From NCBI GenBank assembly GCA_035545015.1, contig DASZZD010000032.1, positions 1 to 64,000 on the forward strand: a DNA stretch of 64,000 nt, in the 5' to 3' direction. The position numbers and the translations under genes are program-made. Positions within the stretch are counted from its first letter, which is position 1. Each line of letters opens with the position of its first letter. This stretch comes from Phycisphaerae bacterium. Its GTDB lineage: Bacteria > Planctomycetota > Phycisphaerae > WQYP01. Under the pieces are notes generated by a model, which saw only the letters and a program-made list of their open reading frames with translations, was not told the origin of the DNA and searched no databases. Below, in pieces: positions 846 to 37,852 of the stretch.

Positions 846-869
846 ATTGGTTCAATTGGTTAAATTGGG
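846..869. repeat. short tandem heptamer/octamer repeat (GATTGGT TCAATTGG TTAAATTGG) flanked by G-runs
   Basis: Direct inspection. Belongs to the AATTGG/GGTAATT heptamer repeat family seen at other loci. Confidence 0.5.
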
Positions 870-949
870 GGGGGCACGGGCGGTGAAAGGGAGCGGGGGC
901 GGCGGCGTCTTGAGGGTGGGCGATAGGGCTTCTTGGCGGATGTGGTGCG

Positions 950-3355
950 ATGGCGACGGATATTGAGCAGATTCAGTTGTATGCCCGGACGCGGGATGCG
1001 GGGGCGTTTGCGGCGCTGATGGCGGCGTACACGGACATGGTGTTCGCCACGTGCCTGCGGATCCTGGCGAATCGCTCGGAGGCGGAGGACGCGACGCAGG
1101 AATGTTTCTGGCGGCTGGCGCGGGAATCGGCGGGGATACGGACGTCGGTGGGGGCGTGGCTGCATCGGTGTGCGACGAATGAATGCATCACGCGGAAGCG
1201 GCGGAAGACGGCCAAGGCGCAGCGTGAATTGGCGTATGAGCGCACGCGGCAGGCGGAGCGGGAGGAGGCGTCGGAATGGCGGGAGGTATCGCCGGCGGTG
1301 GATGAGGCGCTGGAGGAGTTGCCGGAGGAATTGCGGACGCTGTTGATCGGACATTTTTTGCAGCGGCGGACGCAGGCGGAACTGGCGGCGGAGATAGGGG
1401 TATCTCCGGCGACGATGTCGCGGCGGCTGGCGGAGGGCGTGGAGCTGATTCGCAAGCGGCTCAAGGCGCGCGGGGTGATCGCGACGGCGGCGGTGTTGAC
1501 GGTGTTCCTGGCGGAGCGGACGGCGAGCGCGGCGACGCCGGCGGTGGTGGCGGGGTTGGGGAAGATGGCGCTGGCGGGCCCGCCGGCGCATGCGCTGCGA
1601 TGGACGCTGCGGGCGAAGGTGGCGCTGGCGGGAGCGACGGTGGCGGTGGCGGCGGGATTGGTGTGGGGCGGGGAGGCGTATCGGCATCGGCATGGGCGCG
1701 GGGAAGCGGCGGCGGGAGCGGCGGTGGCGCGGGCAAGCGATGGGAAGGTGGAGGCGGGGACGTCGATGACGGAGCCGGACATGCGTGCGCCGGCGGAGGC
1801 GTACACGTTGCTGGCGCGGATTCGCAATGGATTGCCGGAGGTGGCGGGGGATGATCCGCTGGGGGCGGCGCGGGAACTGGCGGCGCTGGGGCCGACGGCG
1901 ACACCGGCGGTGGCGGCGGAACTGGATCGGTCGACGCGCGAGGATGAGCAGCGGGTGTTGATCTGGGTGATGCGGGTGATGGGGGATCGGGCGGCGGTGC
2001 CGGCGCTGTTGCGGGCGATGCCGCGGTTATCGGGAGATGCGGTGGCGTATGAGGTGGCGGTGAAGGATGCGGGGTTGCGTGCGTATGTGCGGTCGCACGA
2101 GCCGGCGGGGGTGATCGGATTTGCGGCGCCGGCGGTGGGGTTGCAGCCGGCGCGGGTGGAATGCGTGGCGGCGCTGGAGGCGTTGACGGGGCAGCGGGCG
2201 GTGTACACGGTGGAGCGCGGGGTGCGGCGGCCGGTGGCGGACGTGTGGGTGGCGTGGTATGCGGCGCATGGGGACGGCGGATCGGCGCAAGACGCGCTGT
2301 CGGCGCCGGCGGCGAAGGATGATCCGGTGGGGGTGGCGGGCGAGCAGGCGCTGGGAGCGCTGTTTCCGGCGGGGCCGCAGGTGCGGTTGACGGAGGTGCG
2401 CGAGGTGGTGCTCGATGCGCGCGCGGGTTGGAATGCGCAGGCGTATGTGGATCTGGATACGGGGGCGCGGCTGGAGCGGAACCAGGGGTGGGTGGATCAC
2501 GGCCAGCATTCCAACGCGGATTGGCCGCGAGAGGCGGGAGTGGATTTGGCAGTGGAGAGCGCTGGCGGAGCGGTGCGGGTGCGAAGTCTTGGGATGCGGG
2601 TGTGGCCGATTGAAAATGAGCGGTTCGAGACGTTTCCCGCGGAAGTGCATTTGAATGGGTCGGTGGACATGGGGGATGCGGGGCCGGTGGCATTGCGGGA
2701 GACGCTGGGGGCGGAGGCGCGGACGTATTTGTTCACGACGCGCGAAGGCGGACGCGGGGTGATGCAGGCGGCGCTGGTGAGCGAGGCGGCAGGTCCGGCG
2801 GTGCGGGTGCGGTATCGGTTGTTCGAGGGCGGAAGCGTGGCGCGGGCGCCGCTGGCGGGAAAGTTTGGCGCCCCCCTACCGGCGGCGGCGACGCGGATGG
2901 CGGGGCAGTTTGCGCCGGAGCGGGAAGTGGAATTGGGCAGCGGGCGTGTGGAACAATCGATGGCGTTGGATGTGGATACCGGGGCGCTGCGTGCGGATGC
3001 GCCGGATGCGGATGCGGGGGAGCTGACGGAGGCGAAGGTGCGGTGGCTGCGGGAATGGGGCGGCGACCTGGTGGTGTTGCCGGCGCCGGCGGAACATGAA
3101 TCGGCGGTGGCGGCGGATCGGCTGGTGGCGCTGCCGGTGACGGCGGACGCGTGGGAGAAGATGCAGCCGGGTGAGGCGGCGACGCTTTTGCTGCGGCGGG
3201 ATTCGTCGGTGGATGCGACCCAGGCGATGCTGCACGTGGGGGCGGGGCAGGTGGAGACGTGGGTGTTCCAGACGCGCGAGGGATGTGCGGGGCTGATGCA
3301 GGTGGAAGGCGAGGGAGCGGGGGGGGTTCGGGTGAGGTATAAGGTGCTGCGGTGA
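950..3355 (+). CDS. ECF sigma-70 factor fused to a transmembrane segment and a large extracytoplasmic domain with an internal tandem duplicated module
   Basis: N-terminus has sigma-70 region 2 (DMVFATCLRILANRSEAEDATQECFWRLA) and region 4 HTH (LPEELRTLLIGHFLQRRTQAELAAEIGVSPATMSRRL). Hydrophobic helices lie at about aa 190-210 and 243-262. The C-terminal region holds two copies of a module (..TYLFTTREGGRGVMQ..VRVRYRL and ..ETWVFQTREGCAGLMQ..VRVRYKVL). Codons are G-ending. Confidence 0.8.
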   Translation: MATDIEQIQLYARTRDAGAFAALMAAYTDMVFATCLRILANRSEAEDATQECFWRLARESAGIRTSVGAWLHRCATNECITRKRRKTAKAQRELAYERTRQAEREEASEWREVSPAVDEALEELPEELRTLLIGHFLQRRTQAELAAEIGVSPATMSRRLAEGVELIRKRLKARGVIATAAVLTVFLAERTASAATPAVVAGLGKMALAGPPAHALRWTLRAKVALAGATVAVAAGLVWGGEAYRHRHGRGEAAAGAAVARASDGKVEAGTSMTEPDMRAPAEAYTLLARIRNGLPEVAGDDPLGAARELAALGPTATPAVAAELDRSTREDEQRVLIWVMRVMGDRAAVPALLRAMPRLSGDAVAYEVAVKDAGLRAYVRSHEPAGVIGFAAPAVGLQPARVECVAALEALTGQRAVYTVERGVRRPVADVWVAWYAAHGDGGSAQDALSAPAAKDDPVGVAGEQALGALFPAGPQVRLTEVREVVLDARAGWNAQAYVDLDTGARLERNQGWVDHGQHSNADWPREAGVDLAVESAGGAVRVRSLGMRVWPIENERFETFPAEVHLNGSVDMGDAGPVALRETLGAEARTYLFTTREGGRGVMQAALVSEAAGPAVRVRYRLFEGGSVARAPLAGKFGAPLPAAATRMAGQFAPEREVELGSGRVEQSMALDVDTGALRADAPDADAGELTEAKVRWLREWGGDLVVLPAPAEHESAVAADRLVALPVTADAWEKMQPGEAATLLLRRDSSVDATQAMLHVGAGQVETWVFQTREGCAGLMQVEGEGAGGVRVRYKVLR

Positions 3356-3783
3356 AGGTTATGAAGGCCAAGCAAAGGGCGGGGCGTATTGGGGGCGAAT
3401 ACCTGCGGCTGGTGAAGCGGCTTCCGCTGCGCGTGATCCGGAACGAGCGGGAGTTGGATGCGGCGAGCGAGGTAGCGCTGGAATTGGCGGGGAAAGGCGA
3501 GGATCACCTGTCGGAAGGGGAATTGGAGTATCTGGAGGTACTGGACCGGTTGATTGAGGAGTATGAGGAGCGAGTGCACGCGATGCCGGTGAGTGCCGCG
3601 AATCCGCTGGAACGGCTGCGGTGGCAGGTGCGGGAAGCGGGGATGAATGCGTCGGATTTGGGACGGCTTCTTGGGAATCGAAGTTTGGGATCGCTGCTGC
3701 TGTCGGGGCGGCGGGAGATGTCGAAAGCGCACATTCGGGCGCTCGCGGGGCATTTTCGGGTGGAGGCGGGGTATTTTCTCTGA
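3352..3783 (+). CDS. HigA-like HTH (XRE family) antitoxin/transcriptional regulator
   Basis: C-terminal HTH (MNASDLGRLLGNRSLGSLLLSGRREMSKAHIRALAGHF) matches the HigA architecture. The GTG start overlaps the stop of the upstream sigma-fusion gene in GTGA (translational coupling). Alternative ATG at 3361 with a GAAGG SD. Confidence 0.65.
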   Translation: MKVMKAKQRAGRIGGEYLRLVKRLPLRVIRNERELDAASEVALELAGKGEDHLSEGELEYLEVLDRLIEEYEERVHAMPVSAANPLERLRWQVREAGMNASDLGRLLGNRSLGSLLLSGRREMSKAHIRALAGHFRVEAGYFL

Positions 3784-3793
3784 CGATCGGCGA

Positions 3794-4054
3794 TTAACTC
3801 TGGACCAGGCGGTCGTATTCGGCGTGGGTGCCGATCCAGAACCAGGTGATGAGGTCGCCGCTCCGCCGCGCCAGCGCGCGGTAGTTGCTGTTGACGCGCG
3901 CGGACCAAAGTCCCGGACGAAGTTCTTTGAAATGAAGGGAAGGGTGGAAGGGTTCGGCGTGCCAGATGACGAACTTCTCACGGGCTAATTCTTGAATGGG
4001 CGCGGGGAGCCTTGCGAAATGTTCCCAGAAGGAGCGGCGGGTTTTCGAAATCAC
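3794..4054 (-). CDS. type II toxin-antitoxin system RelE/ParE family toxin
   Basis: 86 aa with a C-terminal signature (ITWFWIGTHAEYDRL) typical of ParE/RelE-fold toxins. Overlaps its upstream antitoxin gene by 4 nt. Confidence 0.75.
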   Translation of the reverse strand: MISKTRRSFWEHFARLPAPIQELAREKFVIWHAEPFHPSLHFKELRPGLWSARVNSNYRALARRSGDLITWFWIGTHAEYDRLVQS

Positions 4055-4254
4055 GGGCCGTCCTCAAGCCGGCCTTCGCGAATATCGTCGTCGACTTGCT
4101 TGAGGAGCGCGTCGAGTTTTCCGGAGTCGACGTCCTGCTTGATCTGCTCGTCCCACTCGTCATCGGTCCATCCATGGAAATAACGGGCGATTTCGGCGCG
4201 CTCCTCAAAGGAGAGTCTGTCGATGGCTGCTTTAATTTCGTCGACGGTGGTCAT
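4051..4254 (-). CDS. addiction-module antitoxin, small acidic protein, partner of the ParE/RelE toxin
   Basis: Internal ATG at 4254 (MTTVDEIKAAIDRLSFEERAEIARYFHGW...). 67 aa and acidic. 4-nt overlap with the toxin. The longer ORF to 4485 is probably a spurious extension. Confidence 0.6.
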   Translation of the reverse strand: MTTVDEIKAAIDRLSFEERAEIARYFHGWTDDEWDEQIKQDVDSGKLDALLKQVDDDIREGRLEDGP

Positions 4255-4557: not shown

Positions 4558-6183
4558 TTAATAGTCGTCATGCCCGTGATCGTCGCCGCCGCCCTTCTTG
4601 GCTTCTTTCTTCGGCAGCTCGCTGATGACCGCGTCGGTGGTCAGCAGGAGGCTGGCGATGCTGGCGGCGTTGCTGAGGGCGGTGCGTTCGACCTTTGTCG
4701 GGACGATGACGCCCATTTTGATCAGGTCGCCATATTCGTGGGTGAGGGCGTTGTAGCCGAAGTTGGGTTCCTTGGATTCGACGACGCGTTGGGCGACGAT
4801 GGAGCCGTCGACGCCGGCGTTTTCGGAAATCTGCTTGATCGGTGCGTGCAAAGCGCGCTTCACAATGTCGGCGCCGATCCGCTGGTCGCCGTCGAGCTTG
4901 AGCTTGTCGATGGCGGGAATGGCGCGGAGGACGCTGACCCCACCCCCGGGGAGGATGCCTTCTTCGACGGCCGCGCGGCAGGCGTGAAGGGCGTCTTCAA
5001 CGCGCGCCTTCTTTTCCTTCATCGCGGCTTCGGTGGGAGCGCCGACCTTGATCACCGCGACGCCGCCGGAGAGCTTGGCCAGGCGTTCCTGGAGTTTTTC
5101 CTTGTCGTAGTCGCTGGTGGTGCGATCGATCTCGGTCTTGATCTGCTCGATGCGGCCCTTGATCTTGTCGGTCTTGCCGGCGCCTTCGATGATGGTGGTG
5201 GTTTCCTTTTCGATGTGGATTTTCTTGGCCCGGCCGAGGTCTTTGAGCTCCAGCGTTTCGAGGTTGATGCCGAGTTCTTTGAAGATGGGCTGGCCGCCGG
5301 TGACGATGGCGATGTCTTCGAGCATGGCCTTGCGGCGGTCGCCGAAGCCGGGCGCCTTCACGGCGACGACCTTCAGGGTGCCGCGGAGCTTGTTGACGAC
5401 GAGCGTGGCGAGGGCTTCGCCTTCGATATCCTCGGCGATGATCAGGAGGCTCTTGCCGGCTTCGGCGACTTTGCCCAGGACGGGGAGAATGTCCTTGATC
5501 GAGGAAATTTTTTCCTCGTGAATGAGGATGTAGGCGTCTTCATAAGTAACATCCATCGTCTGCGGATCGGCGAAGTGCGGGCTGATGTAGCCCTTGTCGA
5601 ACTGAAGGCCTTCGACGAGATCGACCACGGTGTCGAGCCCTTTGCCCTCCTCGATGGTGATGACGCCGTCCTTGCCGACCTTGTCCATGGCGTCGGCGAT
5701 CATCTGGCCGATCTGCTGGTCCTGATTGGCCGAGGACGCTCCGACCTGCGCGATCTGCTTGGTATCTTTGACGGGGGTGGAGATGTTGCCGAGGTGGGCG
5801 AGGACGGCTTCGACGGCCCTGTCGATGCCGCGCTTGAGGAGGGCGGGATTGGCGCCGGCGGTGACGTTGCGGAGGCCTTCATCGAAGATGGCTTCGGCAT
5901 AGACGGTCGCGGTGGTGGTGCCGTCGCCGGCGACGGTGGAGGTCTTGCTGGCGACTTCCTTGACGAGCTGCGCGCCGAGATTTTCGTTGGCGTCTTCGAG
6001 CTCGATTTCCTTGGCGACCGTGACGCCGTCCTTGGTGACCGTCGGGCTGCCGAAGGATTTCTCGATCACCACGTTGCGGCCGGAGGGGCCGAGGGTGACC
6101 TTGACGGCCTGGGCGAGCGTCTTGACGCCGCGGCGCATCGCTTCACGGGCATCGGTATCGAACATGATGGATTTGGCGGCCAT
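4558..6183 (-). CDS. groL: chaperonin GroEL (60 kDa)
   Basis: 541 aa, [42 protein letters not shown]...GDGTTTATV. Canonical GroEL throughout. C-ending codon usage. Confidence 0.97.
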
Positions 6184-6256
6184 GGGAGGGGCTCCGTTTT
6201 ATGCGGGTTTATGCTTTCAGAACAGTTTCGGCGGTTGCGGTTGGGGCTGCGAGTTC

Positions 6257-6365
6257 GGAGTAATTGGTAATTGCTAATCCGCTGTCGCGGGGGTCGGACG
6301 TGCCATTTGGAAAAAGCGTGCAGCGTCCCAATTACTCAATTAACGCAATTAACTTAATTACTCCC
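6257..6365. repeat. paired inverted clusters of TAATTGG-type heptamer repeats in an unusually long (183 nt) groES-groEL intergenic region
   Basis: GGAGTAATTGGTAATTGCTAATCC (6257-6280) and the inverted CCCAATTACTCAATTAACGCAATTAACTTAATTACTCC (6327-6365). Confidence 0.55.
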
Positions 6366-6366
6366 G

Positions 6367-6663
6367 TCACGCTTCGATGACGGCGAGGACTTCGTCTTCG
6401 CTGAGAACGAGGAGTTCCTCGTTATCGACTTTGATTTCGGTGCCGGCGTAGGAGGCGAAGATGACTTCATCGCCTTTTTTGACCTGGAACTTGGCGCGTT
6501 CGCCGGAGTCGAGGAGCTTGCCGTCGCCGACGGCGATGACGGTGCCGCGTTTGGGCTTTTCCTTGGCGGTTTCCGGCAGCACGATGCCGGACTTGGTCTT
6601 GGATTCGGCCTCGACGCGTTTGATGAGGATTTTGTCGCCGAGGGGACGGACCTTCGCTGCCAT
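6367..6663 (-). CDS. groS: co-chaperonin GroES (10 kDa)
   Basis: MAAKVRPLGDKILIKRVEAESKTKSGIVLPETAKEKPKRGTVIAVGDG... ATG at 6663 is preceded by AAGGAG with an 8-nt spacer. The ORF-track start (GTG 6672) lies inside the SD. Confidence 0.95.
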   Translation of the reverse strand: MAAKVRPLGDKILIKRVEAESKTKSGIVLPETAKEKPKRGTVIAVGDGKLLDSGERAKFQVKKGDEVIFASYAGTEIKVDNEELLVLSEDEVLAVIEA

Positions 6664-6683
6664 GTTCTTCACTCCTTGTGGTG

Positions 6684-6761
6684 AGTAGTCAGTAGACAGA
6701 AGGCAGTAGTCAGCAGTGTGGAAAGCGGCTCCCGTGTTCTGATTACTGACTTCTGACTCCT
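6684..6761. repeat. paired inverted heptamer-repeat clusters (AGTAGTC family; 5 units, 22-nt spacer, 3 inverted units) immediately upstream of groES
   Basis: AGTAGTC AGTAGAC AGAAGGC AGTAGTC AGCAGTG (6684-6718) and the inverted GATTACT GACTTCT GACTCCT (6741-6761). Confidence 0.6.
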
Positions 6762-6772
6762 GGCTTCCCGGT

Positions 6773-7330: not shown

Positions 7331-7503
7331 CGGCGCGGGTTATGCAAAGGTCGTGCCCGGTGGGTACCGCCGCTTTTTGATGCTCGCAAGTCATTTATTT
7401 TCAGGTGTTTGAGATTTTCGCTACCGGCGCAATGGGGCGCGGGGTTTGACTGCCAAAGGGGGAATCGCGGAGGGAGAAAACTGCCGCGGTGGCAGGCGGA
7501 GGG

Positions 7504-7579
7504 ATTGCCCATTTCCAATTGCCCATTGCCGATTGGAGGGTTCACAATCGGCAATGGGCATTGGGCAGTTGGCAATGGG
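7504..7579. repeat. long imperfect palindrome built from two inverted clusters of heptamers (ATTGCCC / GGGCAAT family) between ppiB 3' end and the upstream gene
   Basis: ATTGCCC ATTTCCA ATTGCCC ATTGCCG ATTGG, spacer agggttcaca, then CAATCGG CAATGGG CATTGGG CAGTTGG CAATGGG. Confidence 0.6.
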
Positions 7580-7581
7580 GC

Positions 7582-8757: not shown

Positions 8758-11172
8758 TTAGCGGTGAGGGGAGAGGTGGGCGAGGACGAGGCGGATCTGG
8801 TCGAAGGGGACGGTTTCGTTGAGGGCGAGAAAGAGGGGCTTGAGGTGGTCGGTGCCGTGCTCTTTAGCGGCAATGGCGACCTGCTGGTAAACGGTGTCGG
8901 AGACCCACGGGGCGATCGTTTTGGGGTGGGTGTCGGTAATGAACTCGCAGAGATATTCGATGACGGTGGAGCGGGCGCGGGTAATGTGCTGGGAGACTTC
9001 GTCGATGGATGCGCCCTGGCGGAACATAGTGAAGGACTGCTCTTTGAAAGGGTTCGGGCGCGGCAGGTTGGCGCGTGCGGGGGGCGTTGCGGGTTTGGGC
9101 GGGCGGGTGAGGATGTCGGTTTCGAGGTTGCGGGCTTTGGCGTGGTCGGTGATGAAGGGGACGAATTTGGGGCCGAGGTCGTTGAGTTTGTTTTCGCCAA
9201 TGCCATAAATGAGGCGGAAATTCTGCATGGTGGTGGGGCGGACGCGGGCGAGTTCGCGGAGGGTGGCATCGGAGAAGATGACGTAGGGCGGGACGCTGCG
9301 TTCGTGGGCGATGTCTTTTCTCAGCGCGCGCAGGGCATCGAAAAGTTCGTGATCGACGCCTTCCCAGGAGATTTCTTCGCCGCGGGTTTTGCGGGCCTGC
9401 TCGGCAGATTTGCGGACGATCTGGACGAGCTTGACCTGGCGCTGGCCTTTGAGGACCTCGATGGAATTGCGATTGAGTTTGAGGATGGGCGCGGAATGGC
9501 CAGAGGAGAGGATGAGGGATTCCTGGTTGAGTGCGCCCTGGCCGATGAGCTGGTAGATGTAGTCGCGGAGCTCGGGCTTGGGGAGTTCGCGGAGGAGGCC
9601 GAAGGTGGGGAGCTGGTCGTGATGGAGCTGGCGGATGCGTTCGATATTTTCGCCGCGGAGGATGGAGATGATGTGGCCGATGCCGAAGCGTTGGTCGGTG
9701 CGTGCGACGGCGGAGAGGATTTTCTGGGCGAGAGTGGTGGCGTCGGGGACAGGGGTGGTGTCGCCGAGGCAGATGTCGCAGGCGTGGCAGCCAGTGGTCA
9801 GTGCTGAGTGGTCAGTGGTCAGTGGAGCCCCACCCCCCCCACCGGCGGGGTCTTCTGACAACTGACTACTGACCACGGGCGACTCATACTTTTGGCCGAA
9901 GTATTCGACGAGGGACTGGTGGCGGCAGGTGGCGCCGCGGGCGAAGCGGTCCATGTCGTCGATGTGTTTGAGGGCGGAGGGGACAAAGGCGGGATCGATG
10001 GCGGTGCCGGCGCGGGCGGCTTCGGCGGCGGATTTTTCGATGAGGGATTTCCAGGAGATGGCATCCTGCGCGGAATAGAGCAGGACGCATTCAGCTTCGA
10101 GGCCGTCGCGGCCGGCGCGGCCGGTCTCCTGCTGGTAGGCTTCGATGGATTTGGGCATGGCGGTGTGGAGTACGAAGCGGATGTTGGAGCGGTCGATGCC
10201 CATGCCGAAGGCGATGGTGGCGACGATGAGGTCGCAGTCTTCCTCGATGAAGGCTTCCTGCGTCTTGCGGCGGAGGTCTGGGGTCATGCCGGCGTGATAG
10301 CCCATGACTTTGCGGCCGAGCGATGCGGTTTTGGCGAGGGTTTGGGAGATTTCGTCGACGTCGCGGCGGCGCATGCAGTAGATGATGCCGGCCTCATTTT
10401 TGTGGCGTTCGAGGACGTCGTGGATTTGGGCGAAGATGTCGCGTCGGGGGAGGATGCGGTAAGTGAGGTTGGGGCGGTCGAAGTTGCCGACGAGAATTTC
10501 GGGGTCCTGGAGGCTGAGCTGGCGGGCGATGTCGGAGCGGACCTGGGTGGTGGCGGTGGCGGTGAAGGCGTGAACGGAGGCGCCGGGGAAGATTTCCTTG
10601 AGGTGGGAAAGCTGGCGGTATTCGGGGCGGAAATCGTGGCCCCAGTGGCTGATGCAGTGGGCTTCATCGATGGCGAAAGTTTTGACGCCGGCGTCGCGGA
10701 GAAGATCGTGGAAATAATTCGATTCCACCCCCCCACCGTTTGCGCCGGTGGCGACGCCGGCCATGAGGCGTTCGGGGGACATGAAGAGCATGTGGAGGCG
10801 GCCGTTGCGGAGGTCGGCGGCGACCTGGCGGCGTTCGTCGGTGGAGAGGGAGGAATCGAGCTGCGCGGCGGCGATGCCGAGGGAGCGGAGGGAATCGACC
10901 TGGTCTTTCATGAGGGCGATGAGGGGGGAGATGACGACGGTGGGGCCGAGGCCGTGGGTGGAGCGGAAGAGCGCGGGCGCCTGGTAGCAGAGGGATTTTC
11001 CGCCGCCGGTGGGGAGCACGACGAGGGAATCGCGACCGGCAAGCATGGCCTGCATGGCGGGCTGCTGAAGCGGGCGGAGGGTGCGGTATCCCCAGGTTTT
11101 TTCGATGAGTGCAAGGAGCTGAGGAAGAGGCCCGTCGACGGGGATATTTTGCGGTTCCACCGCGGTGGTCAT
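8758..11172 (-). CDS. recQ: ATP-dependent DNA helicase RecQ (with C-terminal HRDC plus extra winged-helix-like extension)
   Basis: Helicase motifs LVVLPTGGGKSLCYQ, FAIDEAHCISHWGHDFRPEY, zinc-binding CHACDICLG. Core start ATG at 11172 (MTTAVEPQNIP). The frame stays open upstream to an SD+ATG at 11685, giving a possible 170 aa Pro-rich N-terminal extension. Confidence 0.9.
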   Translation of the reverse strand: MTTAVEPQNIPVDGPLPQLLALIEKTWGYRTLRPLQQPAMQAMLAGRDSLVVLPTGGGKSLCYQAPALFRSTHGLGPTVVISPLIALMKDQVDSLRSLGIAAAQLDSSLSTDERRQVAADLRNGRLHMLFMSPERLMAGVATGANGGGVESNYFHDLLRDAGVKTFAIDEAHCISHWGHDFRPEYRQLSHLKEIFPGASVHAFTATATTQVRSDIARQLSLQDPEILVGNFDRPNLTYRILPRRDIFAQIHDVLERHKNEAGIIYCMRRRDVDEISQTLAKTASLGRKVMGYHAGMTPDLRRKTQEAFIEEDCDLIVATIAFGMGIDRSNIRFVLHTAMPKSIEAYQQETGRAGRDGLEAECVLLYSAQDAISWKSLIEKSAAEAARAGTAIDPAFVPSALKHIDDMDRFARGATCRHQSLVEYFGQKYESPVVSSQLSEDPAGGGGGAPLTTDHSALTTGCHACDICLGDTTPVPDATTLAQKILSAVARTDQRFGIGHIISILRGENIERIRQLHHDQLPTFGLLRELPKPELRDYIYQLIGQGALNQESLILSSGHSAPILKLNRNSIEVLKGQRQVKLVQIVRKSAEQARKTRGEEISWEGVDHELFDALRALRKDIAHERSVPPYVIFSDATLRELARVRPTTMQNFRLIYGIGENKLNDLGPKFVPFITDHAKARNLETDILTRPPKPATPPARANLPRPNPFKEQSFTMFRQGASIDEVSQHITRARSTVIEYLCEFITDTHPKTIAPWVSDTVYQQVAIAAKEHGTDHLKPLFLALNETVPFDQIRLVLAHLSPHR
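9792..9876. repeat. 84-85 bp heptamer-repeat palindromic element inserted in-frame within recQ (zinc-binding subdomain loop)
   Basis: CAGTGGT CAGTGCT GAGTGGT CAGTGGT CAGTGGA, a 29-nt G/C spacer, then the inverted TGACAAC TGACTAC TGACCAC. Encodes about 28 extra aa (SPVVSSQLSEDPAGGGGGAPLTTDHSALTTG) between EYFGQKYE and CHACDIC. Confidence 0.7.
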
Positions 11173-11497: not shown

Positions 11498-11636
11498 GGG
11501 GTTGGGTGGGCGCGGGCGGGTTTTGGGGAGTGGGATGGTGTTGGCGTGGCGATGAGGAGGGGGCGGAGGGAGGGGGGGCGTTTTGTGGCGGGAGGGGCGG
11601 TGGGATCGGTGGGTTCGGGCACGGGCGAGGCGTGGG

Positions 11637-11666
11637 GTAATTGGTAACTGGTAACTGGTAATTGGG
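11637..11666. repeat. tandem heptamers GGTAATT GGTAACT GGTAACT GGTAATT in the recQ leader / N-terminal extension
   Basis: Direct inspection. 30 nt, in frame (QLPVTSYQLP on the minus strand). Confidence 0.6.
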
Positions 11667-12522: not shown

Positions 12523-12558
12523 AACGATATTATTATATTTTCGTGGCCGCCTACCTTT

Positions 12559-14639: not shown

Positions 14640-14667
14640 GAGTGCTCCTTTGCGGAGGCGGAGGGGT

Positions 14668-14779
14668 GGTAATTGGTAATTAGTAATTGGTAATTTGCTG
14701 GCGCATCAATGGGGGCCCCGTTCTCCGGCGACAGCCAATTACCAGTTACCAATTACCAGTTCCCATTACCAATTACCAC
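14668..14779. repeat. paired inverted clusters of GGTAATT heptamers (4 units, 39-nt spacer, 6 inverted units) between pilB2 3' end and the lipoprotein gene start
   Basis: GGTAATT GGTAATT AGTAATT GGTAATT and the inverted CAATTAC CAGTTAC CAATTAC CAGTTCC CATTACC AATTACC. Confidence 0.65.
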
Positions 14780-16603: not shown

Positions 16604-16636
16604 AAAAGACGAAAGACGAAAGAAAGACGAAAGATG
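16604..16636. repeat. tandem heptamers AAAGACG x3-4 in the 56-nt pilT-pilB2 intergenic spacer
   Basis: ggaaaAAGACGAAAGACGAAAGAAAGACGAAAGATgggg, flanked by G-runs. Confidence 0.55.
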
Positions 16637-21425: not shown

Positions 21426-24400
21426 ATGCCGACCACCCCCCCGTATCCCCCCCGTCCAACCTCCAGCCCTCCCACCCGCACCGCTCCCCCCGCGCCCAAC
21501 GCCTCTCCCACCCCCCCTGGCAAAAACGTGGCGCTCTTGGCGCCCTGGCCATACCTGCCCTTCCAACTCCACACCGCCAGCCCGCTGGCCACCACCGCCT
21601 CCCCACCGCGCCCCCCAAAGCCCGCTGCCTCCTACAATGACCCCAGACGCCCCCACAGAGGCCCCCCCATGCAACGCCACACCGCCACATCAGCCCCCCC
21701 CACCCCCCCCACCCCCCCCGCCGCCCACGCCCCCGCCCTCGAAGCCCGCACCCAATCCCTCGGCCGCGAACTCCTCGCCGCCTCCCGCGCCTCCCCAGCC
21801 TCCTCCCTCTCCAAAAAATTCTGGTCCGACAAACTCCTCGCCTTTGCCCTCCAAAATGAGCGCTTCAAAAACGAACTCTTCCGCTTCATCGATGTTTTCC
21901 CCGCCCTGCGCACGCCCGCGGCCATCAATCAGCATCTCCACGAGTATCTTCTCCGGCCGGATCTGTCGCTTCCCGCCGGCCTCTCGCTGGCGCTCAAGGC
22001 CGGCAACCTGCTCAAAGGCGCGCAAGCCTCCGCCCTCACCGCCCAGGTTCAATCCATGGCCCGTACGTTCATCGCCGGCCAAACGCTTGATGACGCATTG
22101 CCCGCCCTTGCCGCGCGCTGGGCGGAAGGAATTGCCTTCTCCGTGGACCTCCTGGGGGAAGCGGTCGTCTCGCACGCCGAGGCCCACGCATACCGCGCCC
22201 GCTACGATCAACTTCTAGACGCGCTTCCCAGCGCCGTCGCCGCCTGGCCGGCCAACCCGCTGCTCGACTCCGATCACCTTGGCCCCATCCCGCGCGCCAA
22301 CGTCTCGATCAAAATCTCCGCCCTCGACGGCCGCGTCACCCCAATCGATGCGGACGTTCCCGGCGGCACGCTGGACCGTCTCACCGAAGCGCTGGCCCCG
22401 CTGCTGGAAAAAGCCGCTCGCCACAACGTCCTCATCAACTTCGATATGGAAAGACACGCCCTGCACGAGCTCACGCTGCGCCTGTTCAAGCGCTGCTGCG
22501 AGCGTTTCGACTTTCCCGCAGGCCTTGCGCTCCAGTCCTATCTGAGGTCCGTTCACGAGGACGCCTCCGATCTCATCGCCTGGTCCAAGCGGCTCAATCG
22601 CCGCGTCACCGTGCGCCTGATCAAAGGCGCTTATTGGGATTACGAAACCATCCACGCACAAATGATGAACTGGCCCGCGCCGGTCTGGCCCCGCAAGCAT
22701 CTCACCGACGCCGCTTTTGAAAACACCGCGGCGCTTTTCCTGCGGAATACGCCGAACCGCGCCGGCGAGGGCGGCATCACCTTGGCTGTCGGCACGCACA
22801 ACGTGCGCTCCGTCGCCCGCACGCTCGCCCTCGCGGAACACTTCGATCTCCCGCCCAATGCCGTGGAATTTCAGGCGCTGCGCGGCATGGCCGACGATCT
22901 CAAACACGCGCTCGCGGCGCGTAAGCTGCGTGTCCGTGAATACGTTCCACTCGGCGACCTGATCCCCGGCATGGCCTACCTGGTGCGCCGGCTCTTGGAA
23001 AACACGTCCAACACCGGCTGGCTGCACGCGGACACAACTAGCGCCCCCGCCGAACAACTCCTCGCCTCGCCGCACATCGAGCAACCTGCCGCGATGCTCG
23101 AGGATTCACCCGCAAAACGAAGCAGTTTCCGCAATGAGCCGCTTCGCAATTTTTCACTGGCGCAGGTCCGCGGCGCATTTATGGAGGCGATTGCCGGCGC
23201 CGCTCTCCCGCGCGTCGAAAACAACACCACGCTGGAGACCGCCCAGCACATGGTGCGTTCCGCCACCGAAGCCTTCCCCGCCTGGCGCGACACCCCGGTC
23301 GACCAGCGCGCCGCCATCATCGAAGCGGCGGCGGATCGCCTGTCGAATGTCCGTGACACGCTGGCCGCAATGATCGTCAAGGAATCCCACAAAACCTGGC
23401 CCGAAGCCGACGCCGACGTCTGCGAAGCCATCGACTTCTGCCGCTACTACGCCCTCCACGCCCGCCTCCTGCAAAACCCCCACCGCACCGGCCCCGCCCT
23501 CACCGGCGAACGCAACGAGCTCCGCCACATTCCCCGCGGCCCCACCGCCGTCATCGCACCCTGGAACTTCCCCCTCTCCATCGCCACCGGCATGACCGTC
23601 GCCGCCCTCGTCACCGGCAACCCCGTCATCCTCAAACCCGCCGAGCAAACCCCCGCCATCGCCGCCGCCCTCGCCCACCACCTCCACGCCGCCGGCATCC
23701 CCAAAAACGTCCTCCACTTCTGCCCCGCCCCGGGCGAAACCGTCGGCGCCGCCCTCGTCCGCCACCCCCTCATCACCACCATCGCCTTCACCGGCTCCAA
23801 AACCGTCGGCCTCGATATCCTCCGCGCCGCCGCCGACACGCCCCCCGATGCGCCCTTCATCAAGCGCGTCGTCTGCGAAATGGGCGGTAAAAACGCCATG
23901 ATCGTCGACGACACCGCCGACCTCGACGACGCCGTCCTCGCCGTCCGCCACTCCGCCTTCTCCTACGCCGGCCAGAAATGCTCCGCCGGCTCGCGCCTGA
24001 TCCTCCTCGATTCCATCCACGACGCCTTCCTCGCCCGCCTCATCGAATCCACCCGCGCCCTTATCCTCGGCGACCCCCAAAACCCCTCCACCGACCTCGG
24101 CCCCGTCATCGACGCCGAAGCCGCCAATAAAATCCGCCGCTACATCGACATCGGCAAACAAGAAGCCACCCTCGCCTACCCGGACGATGACGCTGCCGAA
24201 ATCGAAAATCGAAAATTGAAAATTGAAAATGCGATTCCCCCTCACATCTTCACTAACGTCCCCGCCGACAGCCGACTCGCCACCGACGAAATCTTCGGCC
24301 CCGTCCTCGCCGTCCTCCGCGCCAAAGACTTCCCCCACGCCCTCCACCTCGCCAACCTCTCCGCCTACAAACTCACCGGCGGCCTCTTCTCCCGCACCCC

Positions 24401-33764: not shown

Positions 33765-34072
33765 CAACAGACTGCCCCTGGACCAGCAACCCCCGCCGCC
33801 CCACGAGTGACCGTAATCCCGCAATGCGCAAAGCAGCGGAACGCTGATGCGTGTCATCCCCGTCCGGAGTGAAGGGGGTGACGAGACCGGTAGACTTTCC
33901 AGCGCGAGCGATCCATCCTGCCTTCCCTCATGGTGGCCAAAGCCGATCGCTCTCGTCCCGCCCTATGGCCGGGATGGGGACGACAGACTTTTGCGTGGCG
34001 TGCGTTTTGCGAATGGTCGGGCGGGGGATAGGATCGGGGTGGAGTTTGCGTGTCCCTTTGTCGAGGGTGCCG

Positions 34073-36550
34073 ATGGGTAGTGGGTCAGCGATGCATCCGG
34101 GGGCGGGAGACGGAGGGAGCGGAGGCGAGGCGGAGGGGGGCGGGAGGCGGGCGGCCAACAGGCTTATCGAATCGACCAGTCCGTATCTGTTGCAGCACGC
34201 GCACAATCCGGTGGACTGGTATCCCTGGGGGGAGGAGGCGTTCGCCAAAGCGCGGGCGGAGGGGAAGCCGATCTTTTTGTCGATCGGGTATTCGGCGTGC
34301 CACTGGTGTCACGTGATGGAGCGGGAGGTGTTCGAGAAGCCGGCGATTGCGGAGGTGATGAACGCGCATTTCGTGAACATCAAGGTGGACCGTGAAGAGC
34401 GGCCGGACGTGGATGACGTGTACATGCTGGCGACGCAACTGATGACCGGGAGCGGGGGTTGGCCGATGAGCGTGTGGCTGACGCCGGAGTTGAAGCCGTT
34501 TTACGCGGGGACCTATTTTCCGCCGGAGGATGGGGCGCATGGGAGGCCGGGGTTTGTGCGGCTGGAAAAGGCGCTGGCGGAGGCGTGGGCGAATCGGCGG
34601 GGGGAATTGCTGGAGCAGGCCCGGCGCGTGGCGGAGGCGGTGCATATCCACGCGGATGAAGGCGGGGGAGCGGGGGCGGGGCCTGTGGACATGGCGGCGT
34701 GGGCGGTGAAGGGATTGGAGGAATTCGCGGATCGGTTTGATGAGGCGCACGGCGGGCTGGGCGGCGCGCCCAAGTTTCCGCCGCACCAGGCGCTGGCGCT
34801 CTGGCTCACGATGCTGCGCCATCCCAACGCGGCGCAGTTGTCGCAGGAAGAGGTGGCGGCGGTCGAGATGATGGTCGCCGGCACGCTCGACGGCATGATG
34901 AACGGCGGGATTTACGATCAGGTCGGCGGGGGCTTCGCACGCTATTCCACCGACGAGAAATGGCTGGTGCCGCACTTTGAAAAGATGCTCTACGACAACG
35001 CGCAGCTCGCCGCCGTGTATGGGCTGGCGGCGGCACACTTCGGGCGCGGCGATTATGCCCGCGTGGCGCGGCAGACGCTCGATTTCTGGCTGCGCGAGAT
35101 GACCGGCGAACGCGGGGGCGGCGGCGGGTTTTATTCGACGCTGGATGCGGATTCCGAAGGGGCGGAGGGGAAGTTTTATGTGTGGACCGTTGCGGACGTG
35201 CGGGCGGCGCTGGGCGACGGGGCGGGCGGGGATGATGCGGCGCTGATGATGGAGCATTTCGGCGTGACGGAGGCGGGGAATTGGCACGAGTCGCCGGTGC
35301 CGAGCGGGAACGTCTTGAGCGTGGTCAGGGATGTGGAGACGCTGGCGCGGGAACGGGGAGTGAGCGTGGAGGCCATGCGCGGGCGGATCGACGGCCTGCT
35401 GGTGAAGATGCGAGAATGGCGGGCCAGACGCGTGCCGCCCGGGCTGGATGACAAGGTGCTGACAAGCTGGAACGGCCTGATGATCTCGGCGCTGGCGATC
35501 TGCGGGCGCGTGCTGCGCGAGCCGCGCTACCTGGAGGCGGCCCACCGGGGGATGGGGTTTCTGTTGACGGAGCATATGGAAGGGGGACGGCGGTTGCTGC
35601 GGGTGTCGCGGGGGAAAAACACGAAACACGAGACACGAAACACGAAACTGGGGCCGGTCGCCTCGGGCAGTGCGCATACGGACGGGTTTCTGGAGGATCA
35701 CGCCTTCCTGCTCAACGGCATGATGGATCTCATCGAATCCACTACCGCGACCAGCCTCCCGGGTACCATGGCCCGCAAGCGCGCGCTCGAACTGGCCGAC
35801 GTGATGGTGAAGCATTTTGAGGACCCCGAGAAGGGGGCGTTTTTCTTCACCTCCCGGAAGCACGAGGTGCTCTTCGCGCGCATCAAGAACGCGGCCGACA
35901 ACGCGACGCCCTCCGCCAACGGGATGGCCATCCGGGCGCTGCTGCGTCTGGCGGCGGAATCGGGCCGGGAGGAATACCGCGAGAAGGCGCTGCGGGCGGT
36001 CGGGGCGTTCGCGGCCACGATCGGCCGGCGTCCCGATTTCTTTCCGACGATCCTGCAGGCGCTGGTCGAGGACATGGAAGCGCGCACCCGCGGCGTCGGC
36101 GGCGCGCGGGAAACCCTGCCGATCCGCCCGGCCCTCGTCGATGTGGGCCACGGCGCCGGCGGCGGAAGCAAGGTGCTCTCCGTCAACGCCCACGCCGGGA
36201 AGGTGGCCGACGGAAAATTTGAAGTGTTGGTCGAACTCACCCTGGCCGAGGGCTATCACGTCCAGCCGCACCATCCCCAGGACCGCGAAGCCTTCGCCAC
36301 CGTGGCCCGCGTGCGCGGCGACCTGCCCCTGGCCAAACAGGAATGGACTTACCCCGCCGGCGGTGAGGAAGATCACGCCTACGAAGGCAACGTCCGCATG
36401 ATCGGCGCCTGCACCCTCGGCGGCGGAGCGGCGGGGGTGAAGCCCGGAAAATATCCCATGCGCGCCACCGTGCTCGCCCAGCCATGCTCCGGAGCAAGCT
36501 GCCTGGCGCCGGAGAAAGTCAGCGCCGAGTTCGTGGTGGAAGTTCCTTGA
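34073..36550 (+). CDS. thioredoxin-domain protein of the YyaL/DUF255 (SSP411-like, N-acylglucosamine 2-epimerase-like) family
   Basis: [41 protein letters not shown] motifs. The ORF is open from 33851 and the start is uncertain (ATG 34073 or 34091). N-terminal two-thirds G3 codons, C-terminal third C3 codons. Confidence 0.85.
35616..35650. repeat. tandem heptamers AAACACG x4 (+AAACTGG) inserted in frame in the thioredoxin-domain gene
   Basis: gggggAAAAACACGAAACACGAGACACGAAACACGAAACTGGGG encodes [14 protein letters not shown]. Coincides with the switch in codon style. Confidence 0.6.
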
Positions 36551-36792: not shown

Positions 36793-37815
36793 ATGGCGAC
36801 GGTTGAGTCGAAGCCGCGAGGGGGCGGAGTTGGGGCGACGGGAAGCGGGACCGGCGGGGGTCCGGACATCGTGGTGGAAAATCTCACGAAAGCCTACGGT
36901 AATTTTGTCGCGGTCAAGGGCATTTCCTTCCAGGTGCCTCGCGGCGAGATCGTCGGCTTCCTCGGACCCAACGGCGCCGGGAAAACCACGACCATCCGCA
37001 TGCTGACCTGCTACATGCCCCCCACCAGCGGCCAAGCGAGCGTCGCGGGACACGACGTGTTTCGCGAATCGCTGGAAGTGCGGAAACACATCGGGTACTT
37101 GCCCGAATCCACGCCGTTGTATACGGAAATGCGTGTCGGCGAATACCTGGATTTCAAGGCCCGCCTGCACGGGATGGACCGCGAGGCCCGCCGCAGACGC
37201 GTGGCCGAGGTCGCCGCCCGCTGCTGGCTGACCGATCGGCTGCGCAGCCTCGTGGGCACGCTGTCCAAAGGCTATCGCCAGCGCGTGGGGATCGCGGATG
37301 CGATGCTGCACAATCCCAGTGTTCTGGTGCTCGATGAGCCCACGGTCGGCCTGGACCCCTCGCAGATTCGCGAAGCGCGAAAGCTCATTTCCGAACTCGG
37401 GGGCGATCACACGGTGATGCTCTGCACGCACATTCTGCAGGAAGTGGAAATGGTGTGTCAGCGCGTGATCATCGTGGCGCAGGGGCGGATCGTGGCGCAG
37501 GGCACGCCGGAGGAATTGAAGAATCGCGCCGGGGCGGGGATTCGCGCGGAGGTGCGCGGGCCGACGGATCAGGTGCAGGCGGCGCTCAGAGCGTTGCCGG
37601 GGGTGGAGAAGGTGGATGTGCTGCAAGGCGCGGGCGTGGGGGGAGGCGTGGGGCGGTTCAACGTGCGGGGCCGGACGTCGGCGGAGCTGCGGGAACAGAT
37701 CGCCGCGACCGTGGGCCAGCGGGGGTGGAGCTTGCGGGAACTGCGGACCGAGGGTGCGAGCCTAGAAGAATTCTTCGTGCAGATCACGGACCCGGGCGGG
37801 GCCGTGGCGGCGTGA
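36793..37815 (+). CDS. ABC transporter ATP-binding protein (GldA-like, ABC-2 type)
   Basis: Walker A GPNGAGKTT, signature LSKGYRQRV, Walker B LVLDEPTVGLD. Confidence 0.88.
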   Translation: MATVESKPRGGGVGATGSGTGGGPDIVVENLTKAYGNFVAVKGISFQVPRGEIVGFLGPNGAGKTTTIRMLTCYMPPTSGQASVAGHDVFRESLEVRKHIGYLPESTPLYTEMRVGEYLDFKARLHGMDREARRRRVAEVAARCWLTDRLRSLVGTLSKGYRQRVGIADAMLHNPSVLVLDEPTVGLDPSQIREARKLISELGGDHTVMLCTHILQEVEMVCQRVIIVAQGRIVAQGTPEELKNRAGAGIRAEVRGPTDQVQAALRALPGVEKVDVLQGAGVGGGVGRFNVRGRTSAELREQIAATVGQRGWSLRELRTEGASLEEFFVQITDPGGAVAA

Positions 37816-37817
37816 GG

Positions 37818-37852
37818 AGAAGGCAGTCGTCGGAAGAAAGAAGTCAGAACGG
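37818..37852. repeat. degenerate heptamer cluster (AGAAGGC AGTCGTC GGAAGAA AGAAGTC AGAACGG) in the ABC ATPase-permease spacer
   Basis: Shares AGAAGGCAGT(A/C)GTC with the groES-upstream cluster. Confidence 0.4.

Follow-up and report, generated by a model that had tools for sequence, protein, structure and literature searches.

Why does a planctomycete genome rich in GC carry runs of seven-base repeats, many of them mirrored, at the edges of its genes and even inside some of them? The DNA comes from a Phycisphaerae MAG, a soil or water planctomycete with 64% GC; the window is the whole 64-kb stretch analysed. A sequence-only reading had listed eleven loci as STRR-like heptanucleotide arrays (Table 1). 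Nine of these are clear heptamer arrays, while 846-869, with its 9-nt period, and the weak array at 37818-37852 are marginal members. Our preferred answer, which we hold at roughly even confidence, is that the arrays belong to a known class, STRR-like simple-sequence repeats with a 7-nt unit, born by slippage, sometimes copied or replaced, and kept at tolerated sites only.

Table 1. Repeat loci of the window, with position, strand and evidence.
Feature	Position	Strand	Evidence
Weak 9-nt-period array, ATTGGTTAA x2.6, between G-runs	846..869	+	TRF; no fold, z -0.88
Hairpin filling groES-groEL spacer, GTAATTG/CAATTAC-type units	6257..6365	-	fold -33.7 kcal/mol, z -2.7
groES 5' leader hairpin	6684..6761	-	fold -32.4 kcal/mol, z -3.1
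ATTGCCC/GGGCAAT hairpin, cyclophilin gene 3' untranslated region	7504..7579	-	fold -44.1 kcal/mol, z -6.8
In-frame hairpin in recQ	9792..9876	-	fold -52.4 kcal/mol
Single array GGTAATT/GGTAACT x4.3 (+ strand letters)	11636..11666	-	TRF, lag scan, fold 0 kcal/mol
GGTAATT/AATTACC hairpin, 4 + 6 units	14667..14779	-	fold -50.3 kcal/mol, z -4.5
Single array (CGTCTTT)n in sense strand	16604..16636	-	TRF, lag scan
In-frame single array GAAAATC/GAAAATT x4.6 in putA	24198..24231	+	ORF, homologue comparison
In-frame single array AAACACG x4.6, DUF255/thioredoxin-like gene	35616..35650	+	ORF, homologue comparison
Weak purine-rich GAAGTCA-type array	37818..37852	+	lag-7 score 12 of 21; below TRF threshold

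Tandem Repeats Finder (TRF) returned period-7 arrays at 6260-6278, 6737-6767, 7504-7535, 7545-7579, 9792-9825, 9855-9873, 11636-11665, 14667-14695, 14735-14778, 16605-16634, 24199-24230 and 35617-35648. A lag scan of the window (run score at least 12; null of 100 block-wise dinucleotide shuffles) gave seven period-7 runs against 0.08 expected, with a maximum of two in the shuffles, an excess of about 90-fold. Periods 4, 5, 8 and 10 gave no runs and period 11 gave one; periods 6, 9 and 12 rose at low thresholds only, like coding sequence. The arrays had also been described as lower in GC than their surroundings and flanked by G-runs. The first part holds at 10 of the 11 loci (0.24-0.53 vs 0.60-0.66 in the flanks), the second as an enrichment, with a G or C run of at least 4 within 10 nt of an array end at 6 of 11 loci vs 2.2 expected (p ~0.013). 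The arrays are not assembly artefacts, because an independent assembly, GCA_964631025, repeats five of them base for base.

Five of the eleven loci are inverted pairs of arrays and six are single arrays without structure. RNA structure prediction confirmed the pairing into long imperfect hairpins: the five pairs all fold strongly (-32.4 to -52.4 kcal/mol, z -2.6 to -6.8 vs shuffles), and none of the six single arrays folds (z >= -0.9). As no U-tract lies 3' of any of the five, they are not terminators, and we rejected that identity. Folding 24 hairpins in both senses revealed no consistent RNA-strand preference, the sense strand being favoured by more than 2 kcal/mol in 4 of 24 and the antisense in 11. 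An RNA-level signal was seen in two relatives: the L005 hairpin, with 15 G-U pairs, folds better in sense than in antisense by 33 kcal/mol, and the L034 hairpin by 19 kcal/mol. No compensatory changes in orthologous hairpins were scorable.

Eight of the eleven loci are intergenic, in short gaps that separate or adjoin genes of the same orientation. Overall, the arrays mostly start 1-11 nt past stop codons and end 9-27 nt ahead of starts. The groES-groEL hairpin begins 1 nt past the groES stop codon and has arm units of 7-10 nt (8-10 nt in the arm at 6329-6360); relatives have different repeat hairpins in this spacer, or none. The groES-leader hairpin, with sense arms of GGAGTCA/GAAGTCA/GTAATCA and CTGCTGA/CTACTGC/CTTCTGT/CTACTGA/CTACTCA, ends 20 nt ahead of the groES ATG, adjoining the AAGGAG ribosome-binding site on its upstream side. 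The cyclophilin hairpin sits 2 nt past the stop, directly upstream of that gene's intrinsic terminator (7495-7481), and the 4 + 6 hairpin fills the spacer from a type II/IV secretion ATPase gene to the next gene, 1 nt past the stop codon and 27 nt ahead of the next ATG. The (CGTCTTT)n array lies in the 56-nt spacer of two secretion/pilus ATPase genes, 14 nt ahead of the ATG. The single GGTAATT/GGTAACT array is 463 nt upstream of the recQ start, as taken from the 804-residue annotated protein; an inverted partner for it was looked for and not found. Of the marginal members, one lies 16 nt past the PTPS stop codon and the other in a 46-nt spacer from an ABC transporter ATPase gene to a permease gene.

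The remaining three loci are, as had been read, in frame within ORFs: RecQ, PutA and a DUF255 thioredoxin-like protein. The recQ hairpin (arms GTGGTCA/GTAGTCA/GTTGTCA and CACTGAC x4 plus CACTCAG) codes for some 30 residues that follow YFGQKYES and precede CHACDIC of the zinc-binding motif. Within Phycisphaerae this loop is 22-56 residues long and holds many differing inserts with 7-residue periodicity; elsewhere its length is 20 residues. AlphaFold2 predicts the insert as a low-confidence loop in an otherwise confident model (mean pLDDT 87.5; an internal segment below 50, residues 435-457, falls inside the insert). The putA array encodes EIENRKLKIEN, directly ahead of the IPPHIF motif in the aldehyde dehydrogenase domain, with a GC3 of 0.25 vs 0.82 in the gene. 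It is the same in the L003 and L004 genomes; other arrays take its place in the L001 genome and strain P0001, and P0009 and P0023 have none. In one relative an ATTGCCC hairpin stands in place of the ancestral (GAAAATC)n, and in a strain otherwise ~97% identical an ACTCAGN-type array does. The DUF255 array encodes 11 residues, an insertion common to 86% and 72% identical homologues and missing in more distant ones. Array-bearing loops are short or missing in distant homologues, and the coding copies are loop insertions peculiar to the lineage rather than conserved segments of the protein.

Between relatives, arrays are present or absent, differ in unit number or are swapped at one site for another heptamer type. 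The scan is highly significant, the orthologous loci are polymorphic and the coding copies are lineage-specific, so the sequence-only reading holds on all three points. Its word 'family' does not, if it means a single element with a common consensus, as loops and most heptamers differ. The heptamers (GGTAATT, ATTGCCC, CGTCTTT, GAAAATC, AAACACG) have no common motif; as had been noticed, most types are locus-specific and some recur, namely GGTAATT, which three loci of the window and the L005 groES-groEL spacer share, and AGTAGTC/GACTACT.

Such recurrence invites the suggestion that these are small non-autonomous mobile palindromic elements (MITE/REPIN/RPE-like), copied in trans by an enzyme whose gene is at another genomic site, with insertions kept in spacers and, when in frame, protein loops. 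The sites of the ~85-nt ATTGCCN hairpin are not orthologous: in the window and L004 it lies in the cyclophilin 3' region, in the L001 genome inside putA. Presence and absence are clean between the cyclophilin stop codon and terminator (present in L004, a remnant in L001, missing in L002, L003 and L005), two same-type arrays are new in putA of the ~97% identical strain, and one and the same loop of RecQ holds at least five or six different arrays across species. However, the copies share neither loop sequence nor termini and differ in arm unit number, no target-site duplication was seen, and the 64 kb hold no transposase, RAYT or reverse transcriptase gene. The likeness between copies is that of any two arrays of one heptamer, and the many types would need many enzymes or one that is sequence-independent. 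We therefore think mobility rather unlikely.

The slippage origin is supported by the groES-leader hairpin, because its unit number varies among the window and the orthologous copies in L001, L003 and L004. Enrichment in the lineage also speaks for the preferred reading, arrays being 4-5x denser in the close clade (93 per Mb) than in the other loci fetched (19-23 per Mb). On the other side, array divergence equals that of flanking third codon positions, giving no sign of purifying selection. It had been remarked that gain or loss of one unit would shift the frame of a host ORF. As arithmetic this is true, 7 not being a multiple of 3, and 5' untranslated heptamer repeats do toggle Haemophilus influenzae adhesin genes, as described in PMC12721329 and PMC8262952. 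Contingency loci switching genes by 7-nt slippage are nevertheless highly improbable here. The near-identical independent assembly (99.6-99.99%) shows no indels or length change in 22.6 kb covering five arrays, a third sample has the same spacer lengths, unit number is constant across PutA orthologues 64% identical overall, and the hosts are housekeeping genes (groESL, recQ, putA). Membership in the phase-variation family was rejected for want of unit-number change in the near-identical assemblies.

Single arrays have no structure and come 9-27 nt ahead of start codons. This fits multivalent sites for a single-strand nucleic-acid-binding protein (cold-shock-domain, ribosomal protein S1 or similar) that would adjust translation or the fate of mRNA, a role proposed for the TAACTGA repeats, which sit just upstream of starts in Beggiatoaceae (MacGregor 2015, PMC4679880). 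Those repeats, of marine Beggiatoaceae, cyanobacteria and Bacteroidetes, likewise come as 2-6 copies near start codons, give 7-residue periodic peptides where ORF arrays are read in three frames, and are scattered phylogenetically (PMC4679880). Related units (GGTAACT, CAACTGA, CTACTGA) occur in the window and in Acidobacteriaceae, which have similar hairpins beside groES/groEL. Arrays of (CTACTGA)n/(CAACTGA)n type run right up to a ribosome-binding site, that of groES in the window and that of groEL in Acidobacteriaceae. CTGAC, ACTGA and AACTG are each in 9 of 54 array consensus sequences vs ~1 expected, and ACTGA/CTGAC heptamers, 1-2 bases from TAACTGA (PMC4679880), are over-represented across phyla. 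But the window heptamers lack a common motif, hairpins make half of the loci double-stranded, and three loci lie inside ORFs distant from start codons, so we regard this role as distinctly improbable. In Beggiatoaceae one unit dominates, with one indirect repeat only, whereas the window has many units and half of its loci are inverted pairs.

Repeats of 7-base tandem units have been known since 1990; the STRR units of Calothrix and Anabaena are CCCCAAT, TTGGTCA and CAACAGT. Our arrays resemble cyanobacterial STRRs, of which Calothrix PCC 7601 has three heptanucleotides as cited in PMC4692102, in their tandem 7-nt units at many dispersed, mostly intergenic loci, in having several unit types per genome, and in units one base off (CAATGGG vs the complement ATTGGGG; GTGGTCA vs TTGGTCA). 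They differ in host (Planctomycetota, class Phycisphaerae, 64% GC), unit sequences, short arrays (3-6 units), inverted pairs at about half of the loci and in-frame copies in conserved enzymes. The earlier remark that such repeats are not expected in a high-GC genome is wrong. Xanthomonas is high in GC. It carries GGGAATC arrays, some as inverted pairs (PMC4692102). Heptamers are reported to be the most abundant long SSR in most bacterial genomes, for which polymerase slippage has been hypothesised, according to PMC4679880 citing Mrazek 2007. Shared with these are a specific excess of period 7, intergenic bias, same-spacer variation in length and sequence between related species, and occasional inversion. 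Xanthomonas has essentially one G-rich unit with quadruplex potential, whereas the window has many AT-rich units, hairpin pairs as its dominant layout, and coding insertions.

Like REP/BIME/REPIN elements (PMC3733652), the hairpins lie in short operon spacers and just past stop codons, and the mRNA-stabilising role proposed for REPs is the best functional analogy. REPs are linked to RAYT transposases and have, within a species, a consensus of 20-40 nt tagged with GTAG or CGTC; the window hairpins have tandem 7-mers, no consensus and no RAYT gene seen, so membership was rejected. The suggested likeness to Rickettsia palindromic elements (PMC10969869) stands for the in-frame copies, palindromic DNA that, in genes of metabolism or housekeeping unrelated to one another, extends an intact protein by a surface peptide. 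Membership does not: RPEs are ~150 bp, in families with conserved consensus and peptide and without tandem heptamers, whereas the window inserts are heptamer arrays of 33-90 nt whose peptide is a by-product of a 7-mer read in three frames.

We return, then, to slippage-born simple-sequence repeats. Slipped-strand mispairing of 7-nt units, as proposed for bacteria at large, would create arrays and change their length; in many cases a complementary array would then arise nearby, making a hairpin, and now and then an array of another type may overwrite the first. Their distribution shows that arrays persist only at harmless sites, since they hug stops and starts and the protein inserts sit in variable loops. 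Tolerated sites are the few bases from a stop codon to the next signal in operons, untranslated regions on the 5' and 3' sides, and, if total length keeps the frame, protein surface loops that are disordered. Slippage does not explain the side-by-side rise of complementary arrays, the recurrence of a few heptamer types at unrelated loci and in other phyla, or the putA replacement of (GAAAATC)n by other arrays; stepwise change in an ORF would also pass through frameshifted intermediates, and the near-identical assemblies agree in unit number.

Since the intergenic copies have genes of the same orientation around or beside them, each is probably transcribed; in the five paired copies this would give the mRNA an imperfect stem of 30-45 bp. 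By analogy with REP/BIME elements, the likeliest consequence would be a stem that blocks 3' exonucleases or serves as a processing site, decoupling the stability of neighbouring cistrons such as groES and groEL. Single G-poor or purine-rich arrays would remain single-stranded just upstream of start codons. It is possible that the arrays are largely neutral or selfish. What is new here, for a known repeat type, is the lineage, Phycisphaerae, and the layout, with mirrored pairs and in-frame copies.

Tandem Repeats Finder gave a period of 7 to nine of the eleven loci at which the sequence-only reading had placed heptamer arrays, while 846-869 repeats every 9 nt and 37818-37852 shows only weak periodicity. 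These loci are dispersed over 38 kb, eight in intergenic DNA and three in ORFs. As that reading had expected, period 7 is in excess: a lag scan of the window found seven runs scoring at least 12, against a mean of 0.08 (maximum 2) in 100 shuffles that preserved local dinucleotide content. The same scan gave no run of this score at periods 4, 5, 8 and 10, and 0-1 runs at the periods, other than 7, that are not multiples of 3. The arrays are poorer in GC (0.24-0.53) than their flanks (0.60-0.66), in a window of 64% GC, but the recQ element is an exception. The claimed G-run flanks amount to a modest enrichment, with G or C runs beside six of the eleven loci against 2.2 expected. An Rfam search of the whole window at gathering thresholds returned no family matches. 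An exact GAAAATC dimer near position 3993 of L004, a related locus, is a two-unit chance match within a gene, and (GGTAATT)3 gave 12 matches in viral contigs, mostly single arrays in low-GC contigs.

Five arrays are reproduced exactly in an independent second assembly (GCA_964631025; contigs L081, L165 and L166), at 99.6-99.99% identity and with no gaps, and are therefore not assembly artefacts. As there are no gaps over the 5,858, 3,892 and 12,832 nt covering these five arrays, no strain-level length change was seen. Phase variation, with the arrays acting as contingency SSRs (simple sequence repeats), is thus unlikely, since near-identical assemblies do not differ in unit number. The second assembly’s contigs break, relative to the window, at ~1532, 7389/7402, 11293, 24658 and 37489; those recovered do not include PutA, and another sample has a variant PutA with other arrays. 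Differences between strains at the array sites may be breaking up assemblies.

The inverted pairs had been read as long imperfect hairpins, and RNA folding in the sense of the flanking genes bore this out at five loci, with energies of -32 to -52 kcal/mol and z-scores of -2.6 to -6.8. The six single arrays folded without structure. The five hairpins are built from four different heptamers and their loops are unrelated. They are not intrinsic terminators, as none of the heptamer hairpins has a T-run or U-tract behind it; the cyclophilin gene retains a terminator of its own (7495-7481) directly after its heptamer hairpin. A strong bias towards folding in the sense orientation was seen only in two related loci, L005 and L034; the window and Acidobacteriaceae showed no such bias or the opposite one. 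The groES-leader hairpin has no compensatory pairs among four orthologues; its arms can pair in several registers, so the covariation test has no power here.

Each of the eight intergenic arrays sits between, or next to, genes that run in the same direction. The distance from the upstream stop codon to the array is 1-16 nt, and for five of the seven arrays with an upstream gene it is 1-9 nt. At the downstream end, 9-20 nt separate three arrays from the following start codon, and 27 nt a fourth. Where relatives have no array the same spacer is very short (3 nt between the cyclophilin stop codon and terminator in L002), and it follows that spacers with an array consist mostly of the array.

Genes around the arrays and folded spans of the heptamer hairpins, in window coordinates
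Feature	Position	Strand	Basis
PTPS gene	41-829	+	Pfam
Sigma-70-like gene	950-3355	+	Pfam
groEL	4558-6183	-	Pfam
Hairpin	6250-6366		RNA fold, gene sense
groES	6367-6663	-	Pfam
Hairpin	6676-6772		RNA fold, gene sense
Response regulator	6773-7321	-	Pfam
Hairpin	7495-7585		RNA fold, gene sense
Cyclophilin	7582-8076	-	Pfam
recQ	8758 to ~11172	-	Pfam
Hairpin	9785-9885		RNA fold, gene sense
Hairpin	14655-14785		RNA fold, gene sense
Type II/IV secretion ATPase genes (three)	14781-19579	-	Pfam
putA	21669-24629	+	Pfam
DUF255/thioredoxin-like gene	33851-36550	+	Pfam
ABC transporter ATPase and permease	36793-38596	+	Pfam

Most of the Phycisphaerae loci fetched keep the order response regulator-groES-groEL (window 6773-4558, L001-L044). 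Directly downstream of groEL, at 3794-4254 (-), lies a ParE-like toxin gene preceded by a 67-residue partner, a pair also found in the second assembly. A truncated N6/N4 DNA methylase ORF, followed by a low-GC (0.46) stretch without recognised genes, occupies 11947-13133 and may be the leftover of a mobile or restriction-modification island. GC skew over the window (1-64000) is very strong, block-wise and does not track the orientation of the genes: the block at 1-20 kb has +0.2 to +0.44 and that at 22-28 kb has -0.25 to -0.32, while 34-46 kb is positive and 52-64 kb negative. Consistent with this skew, 70% of groEL four-fold sites differ between the window and L001, a Phycisphaerae MAG, despite ~97-98% identity of the GroEL proteins. 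The skew blocks and the four-fold divergence suggest a strong strand-specific mutation bias plus rearrangements.

Within ORFs, such arrays add low-complexity loops to proteins that are conserved elsewhere. The recQ hairpin encodes ~30 residues, with YFGQKYES and CHACDIC (zinc-binding motif) on either side. Among 70 homologues this loop has 20 residues outside the class and 22-56 in Phycisphaerae, where it frequently shows a seven-residue periodicity that comes from different heptamers (TQHSAPSTQHS; VQGFKGSRVQG...LEPLNPEPLNP; PVASGQW...DQRPLTAG; QDPKLKTQDSSLKT; SSLITHPSSLIT; PETENSKPETANS). The AlphaFold2 model of the window RecQ has a mean pLDDT of 87.5 and just two internal segments below 50, of which 435-457 falls inside the insert. 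The putA array (GAAAATC/T x4.6) encodes EIENRKLKIEN, preceding IPPHIF, and the DUF255-gene array (AAACACG x4.6) an 11-residue insert after RLLRVSR; both inserts are missing from distant homologues. An NCBI Phycisphaerae MAG has annotated proteins that match the window’s RecQ and DUF255 protein at 100% identity.

Upstream of recQ, the G-rich stretch 11173-11946 contains a degenerate direct duplication of ~300 nt. At 11684 (-) the start context ATGACCACCGC occurs a second time, with a ribosome-binding site and in frame with recQ; if translation began there, the 11636-11666 array would be read as QLPVTSYQLP, within an N-terminal extension rich in proline. Directly downstream of the putA start used here (21669) is a 45-nt C-rich tract (CCCCCCCCA-like) at 21694-21738.

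The suggestion that arrays might differ in presence and unit number at orthologous loci was borne out between relatives at the groES leader, the groES-groEL spacer, cyclophilin and putA. Besides L001, the relatives include five further Phycisphaerae/Planctomycetota MAGs (L002-L006), with GroEL 89-94% identical to that of the window. The window, L001, L003 and L004 have orthologous groES-leader hairpins, built of a common GAAGTCA-type unit in differing numbers; L006 has another heptamer there, L002 a single ACTCGAA array and L005 nothing. The groES-groEL spacer carries hairpins of GTAATTG in the window, GGTAATT in L005, ATTTTCA in L006 and 8-9-nt CACAGAG units in L001, L025 and L034, and is short and without paired arrays in L002-L004. 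The window and L004 have the ATTGCCC hairpin 3' of cyclophilin, L001 has it in decayed form, and L002, L003 and L005 lack it. Hairpins of tandem 8-10-nt units (CACAGAG/CTCTGTG type, ATCTGCGTT type) were seen in the groES-groEL spacer of L001 (9799-9994), L025, L034 (9857-10000), L033 and L042; repeat-built hairpins in the class are therefore not limited to period 7.

At putA, L003 and L004 have identical-type (GAAAATC)n at the DNA level, with equal unit number, in a protein only 64% identical overall. GC3 falls from 0.80-0.82 in the gene to 0.25 in the array, and the array shows no extra nucleotide conservation (78-89% identity against 82-85% in the flanks). The L001 genome, whose three contigs are identical to each other, has at this site an 81-nt ATTGCCC/GGGCAAT hairpin of the same type as the cyclophilin 3' element. 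The PutA of JGI sample 3300056388 (P0001), ~97% identical to that of the window outside the arrays, has TQSSALSTQSS at the array site and, 120 residues upstream, a second new patch, QHSALSPQH, where every other relative has DTPPxAP. The two peptides are what ACTCAGN-type heptamers, as in L002 recQ, would encode. No source array for the (CAGCACT)n patches of P0001 was found in the window at up to 3 mismatches, and the groES contig of this sample has the same spacer lengths as the window. A metagenome scan with PutA returned homologues of at most 55% identity and no new close relatives. Parsimony makes (GAAAATC)n ancestral in putA and overwritten twice.

Period-7 arrays scoring at least 10 reach a density of 93 per Mb in the window and its closest relatives. 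The density is 19-23 per Mb in the three other sets (other Phycisphaerae, an Acidobacteriaceae-dominated set, and diverse putA loci totalling 1 Mb), and within all sets it is above that of periods 5, 10 and 11. Six Acidobacteriaceae loci (L050, L054, L057, L065, L066 and L079) have heptamer-pair hairpins in the groES-groEL spacer. Their units (AGTAGTC/AGTAGCC ... CTACTGA/CAACTGA) are of the same type as those of the window’s groES leader and, as there, the 3' arm (CTACTGA/CAACTGA)n ends at a ribosome-binding site, here that of groEL. Among 54 array consensus units, CTGAC, ACTGA and AACTG occur 9 times each against ~1 expected, and CGAAA and TGAAA 7 times against 1.1-1.4; these counts, in which hairpin arms and orthologous arrays are not independent, were reached in none of 500 shuffles. 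The chaperonin-adjacent unit flavour in Acidobacteriaceae and the non-random vocabulary point to a cause common to several phyla, one open to testing.

Catalogues of heptanucleotide repeats go back to 1990 for cyanobacteria and were later extended to Xanthomonas, Burkholderia and Beggiatoaceae; to our knowledge the repeats have to date no accepted origin or function. The elements described here belong to this class, as generic long SSRs resembling STRRs (short tandemly repeated repetitive heptamers). In the strict sense STRRs are the CCCCAAT, TTGGTCA and CAACAGT repeats of heterocystous cyanobacteria, which excludes the present units (GGTAATT, AGTAGTC, ATTGCCC, CAGTGGT, AAAGACG, GAAAATC and AAACACG) and their Phycisphaerae host. 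Nor are they TAACTGA repeats: the window has no TAACTGA array, its nearest units being GGTAACT and CTACTGA, and that system consists of exact direct repeats, mostly a few nt upstream of start codons (MacGregor 2015, PMC4679880). The same paper describes heptamers as the commonest long SSR class in most bacterial genomes, with polymerase slippage as a proposed cause. TAACTGA arrays are common to Beggiatoaceae, cyanobacteria and Bacteroidetes, near start codons and inside ORFs, with S1, Csp and CsrA as proposed binders (PMC4679880). Xanthomonas has ~185 GGGAATC arrays, some inverted, whose length and sequence vary between species, and Nostoc has GGGGAYT arrays (PMC4692102). Our literature search found no paper tying such repeats to Planctomycetota.

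The hairpins are not REP/REPIN elements, whose copies share a species-specific palindromic consensus of 20-40 nt, as the window hairpins do not. Pfam found no RAYT (REP-associated, IS200/IS605-like) transposase gene among the ORFs of the 64 kb. MITEs combine terminal inverted repeats and a target-site duplication with likeness to the ends of a full-length transposon. The hairpin arms are inverted repeats by construction; no target-site duplication is visible at the cyclophilin stop-codon/terminator insertion of the window or L004 when compared with the empty L002 site. Rickettsia palindromic elements (RPEs) are inserted in frame in Rickettsia genes (PMC10969869), and the proposed likeness to them holds for the in-frame hairpins within unrelated genes, window recQ and L001-genome putA. 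It does not extend to an RPE family consensus or peptide: RPE families are ~150 bp long with a conserved consensus and encoded peptide, whereas the window inserts are 33-90 nt and their peptides vary with heptamer type and share no consensus. Differing in size, peptide and consensus, they are not members of an RPE family.

The arrays are in excess, take two architectures, follow a positional pattern, are enriched in this lineage and are gained, lost, resized and replaced between relatives. They would originate by slippage, be transcribed and fold in operon mRNAs and, by analogy with REP elements, the folded arrays would affect mRNA fate. Slippage alone does not explain complementary arrays arising side by side, a non-random unit vocabulary across phyla or array-for-array replacement, and a mobile or templated mechanism thus stays the main rival. 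It is conceivable, though we think it improbable, that the arrays are written and not merely slipped, by an unrecognised sequence-templated process that installs or overwrites small-vocabulary arrays where a site is prone to form hairpins or already carries an array. Such a process would work in Planctomycetota and Acidobacteriota and might also do so in cyanobacteria and Beggiatoaceae. The shared vocabulary would be NNACTGA/CTGAC-type and GAAAAY-type units. If true, such writing would explain the replacement of one putA array by another within ~3% divergence, the many different arrays in one RecQ loop, and one unit type ending at the ribosome-binding sites of chaperonin genes in two phyla.

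The arrays make this lineage a cleaner comparative system: they are short, many are paired into hairpins, and they lie at defined sites in the conserved response regulator-groES-groEL operon and in loops of fixed position in PutA and the RecQ zinc finger. Comparing related genomes at these sites can show directly how arrays are gained, lost, resized and replaced.
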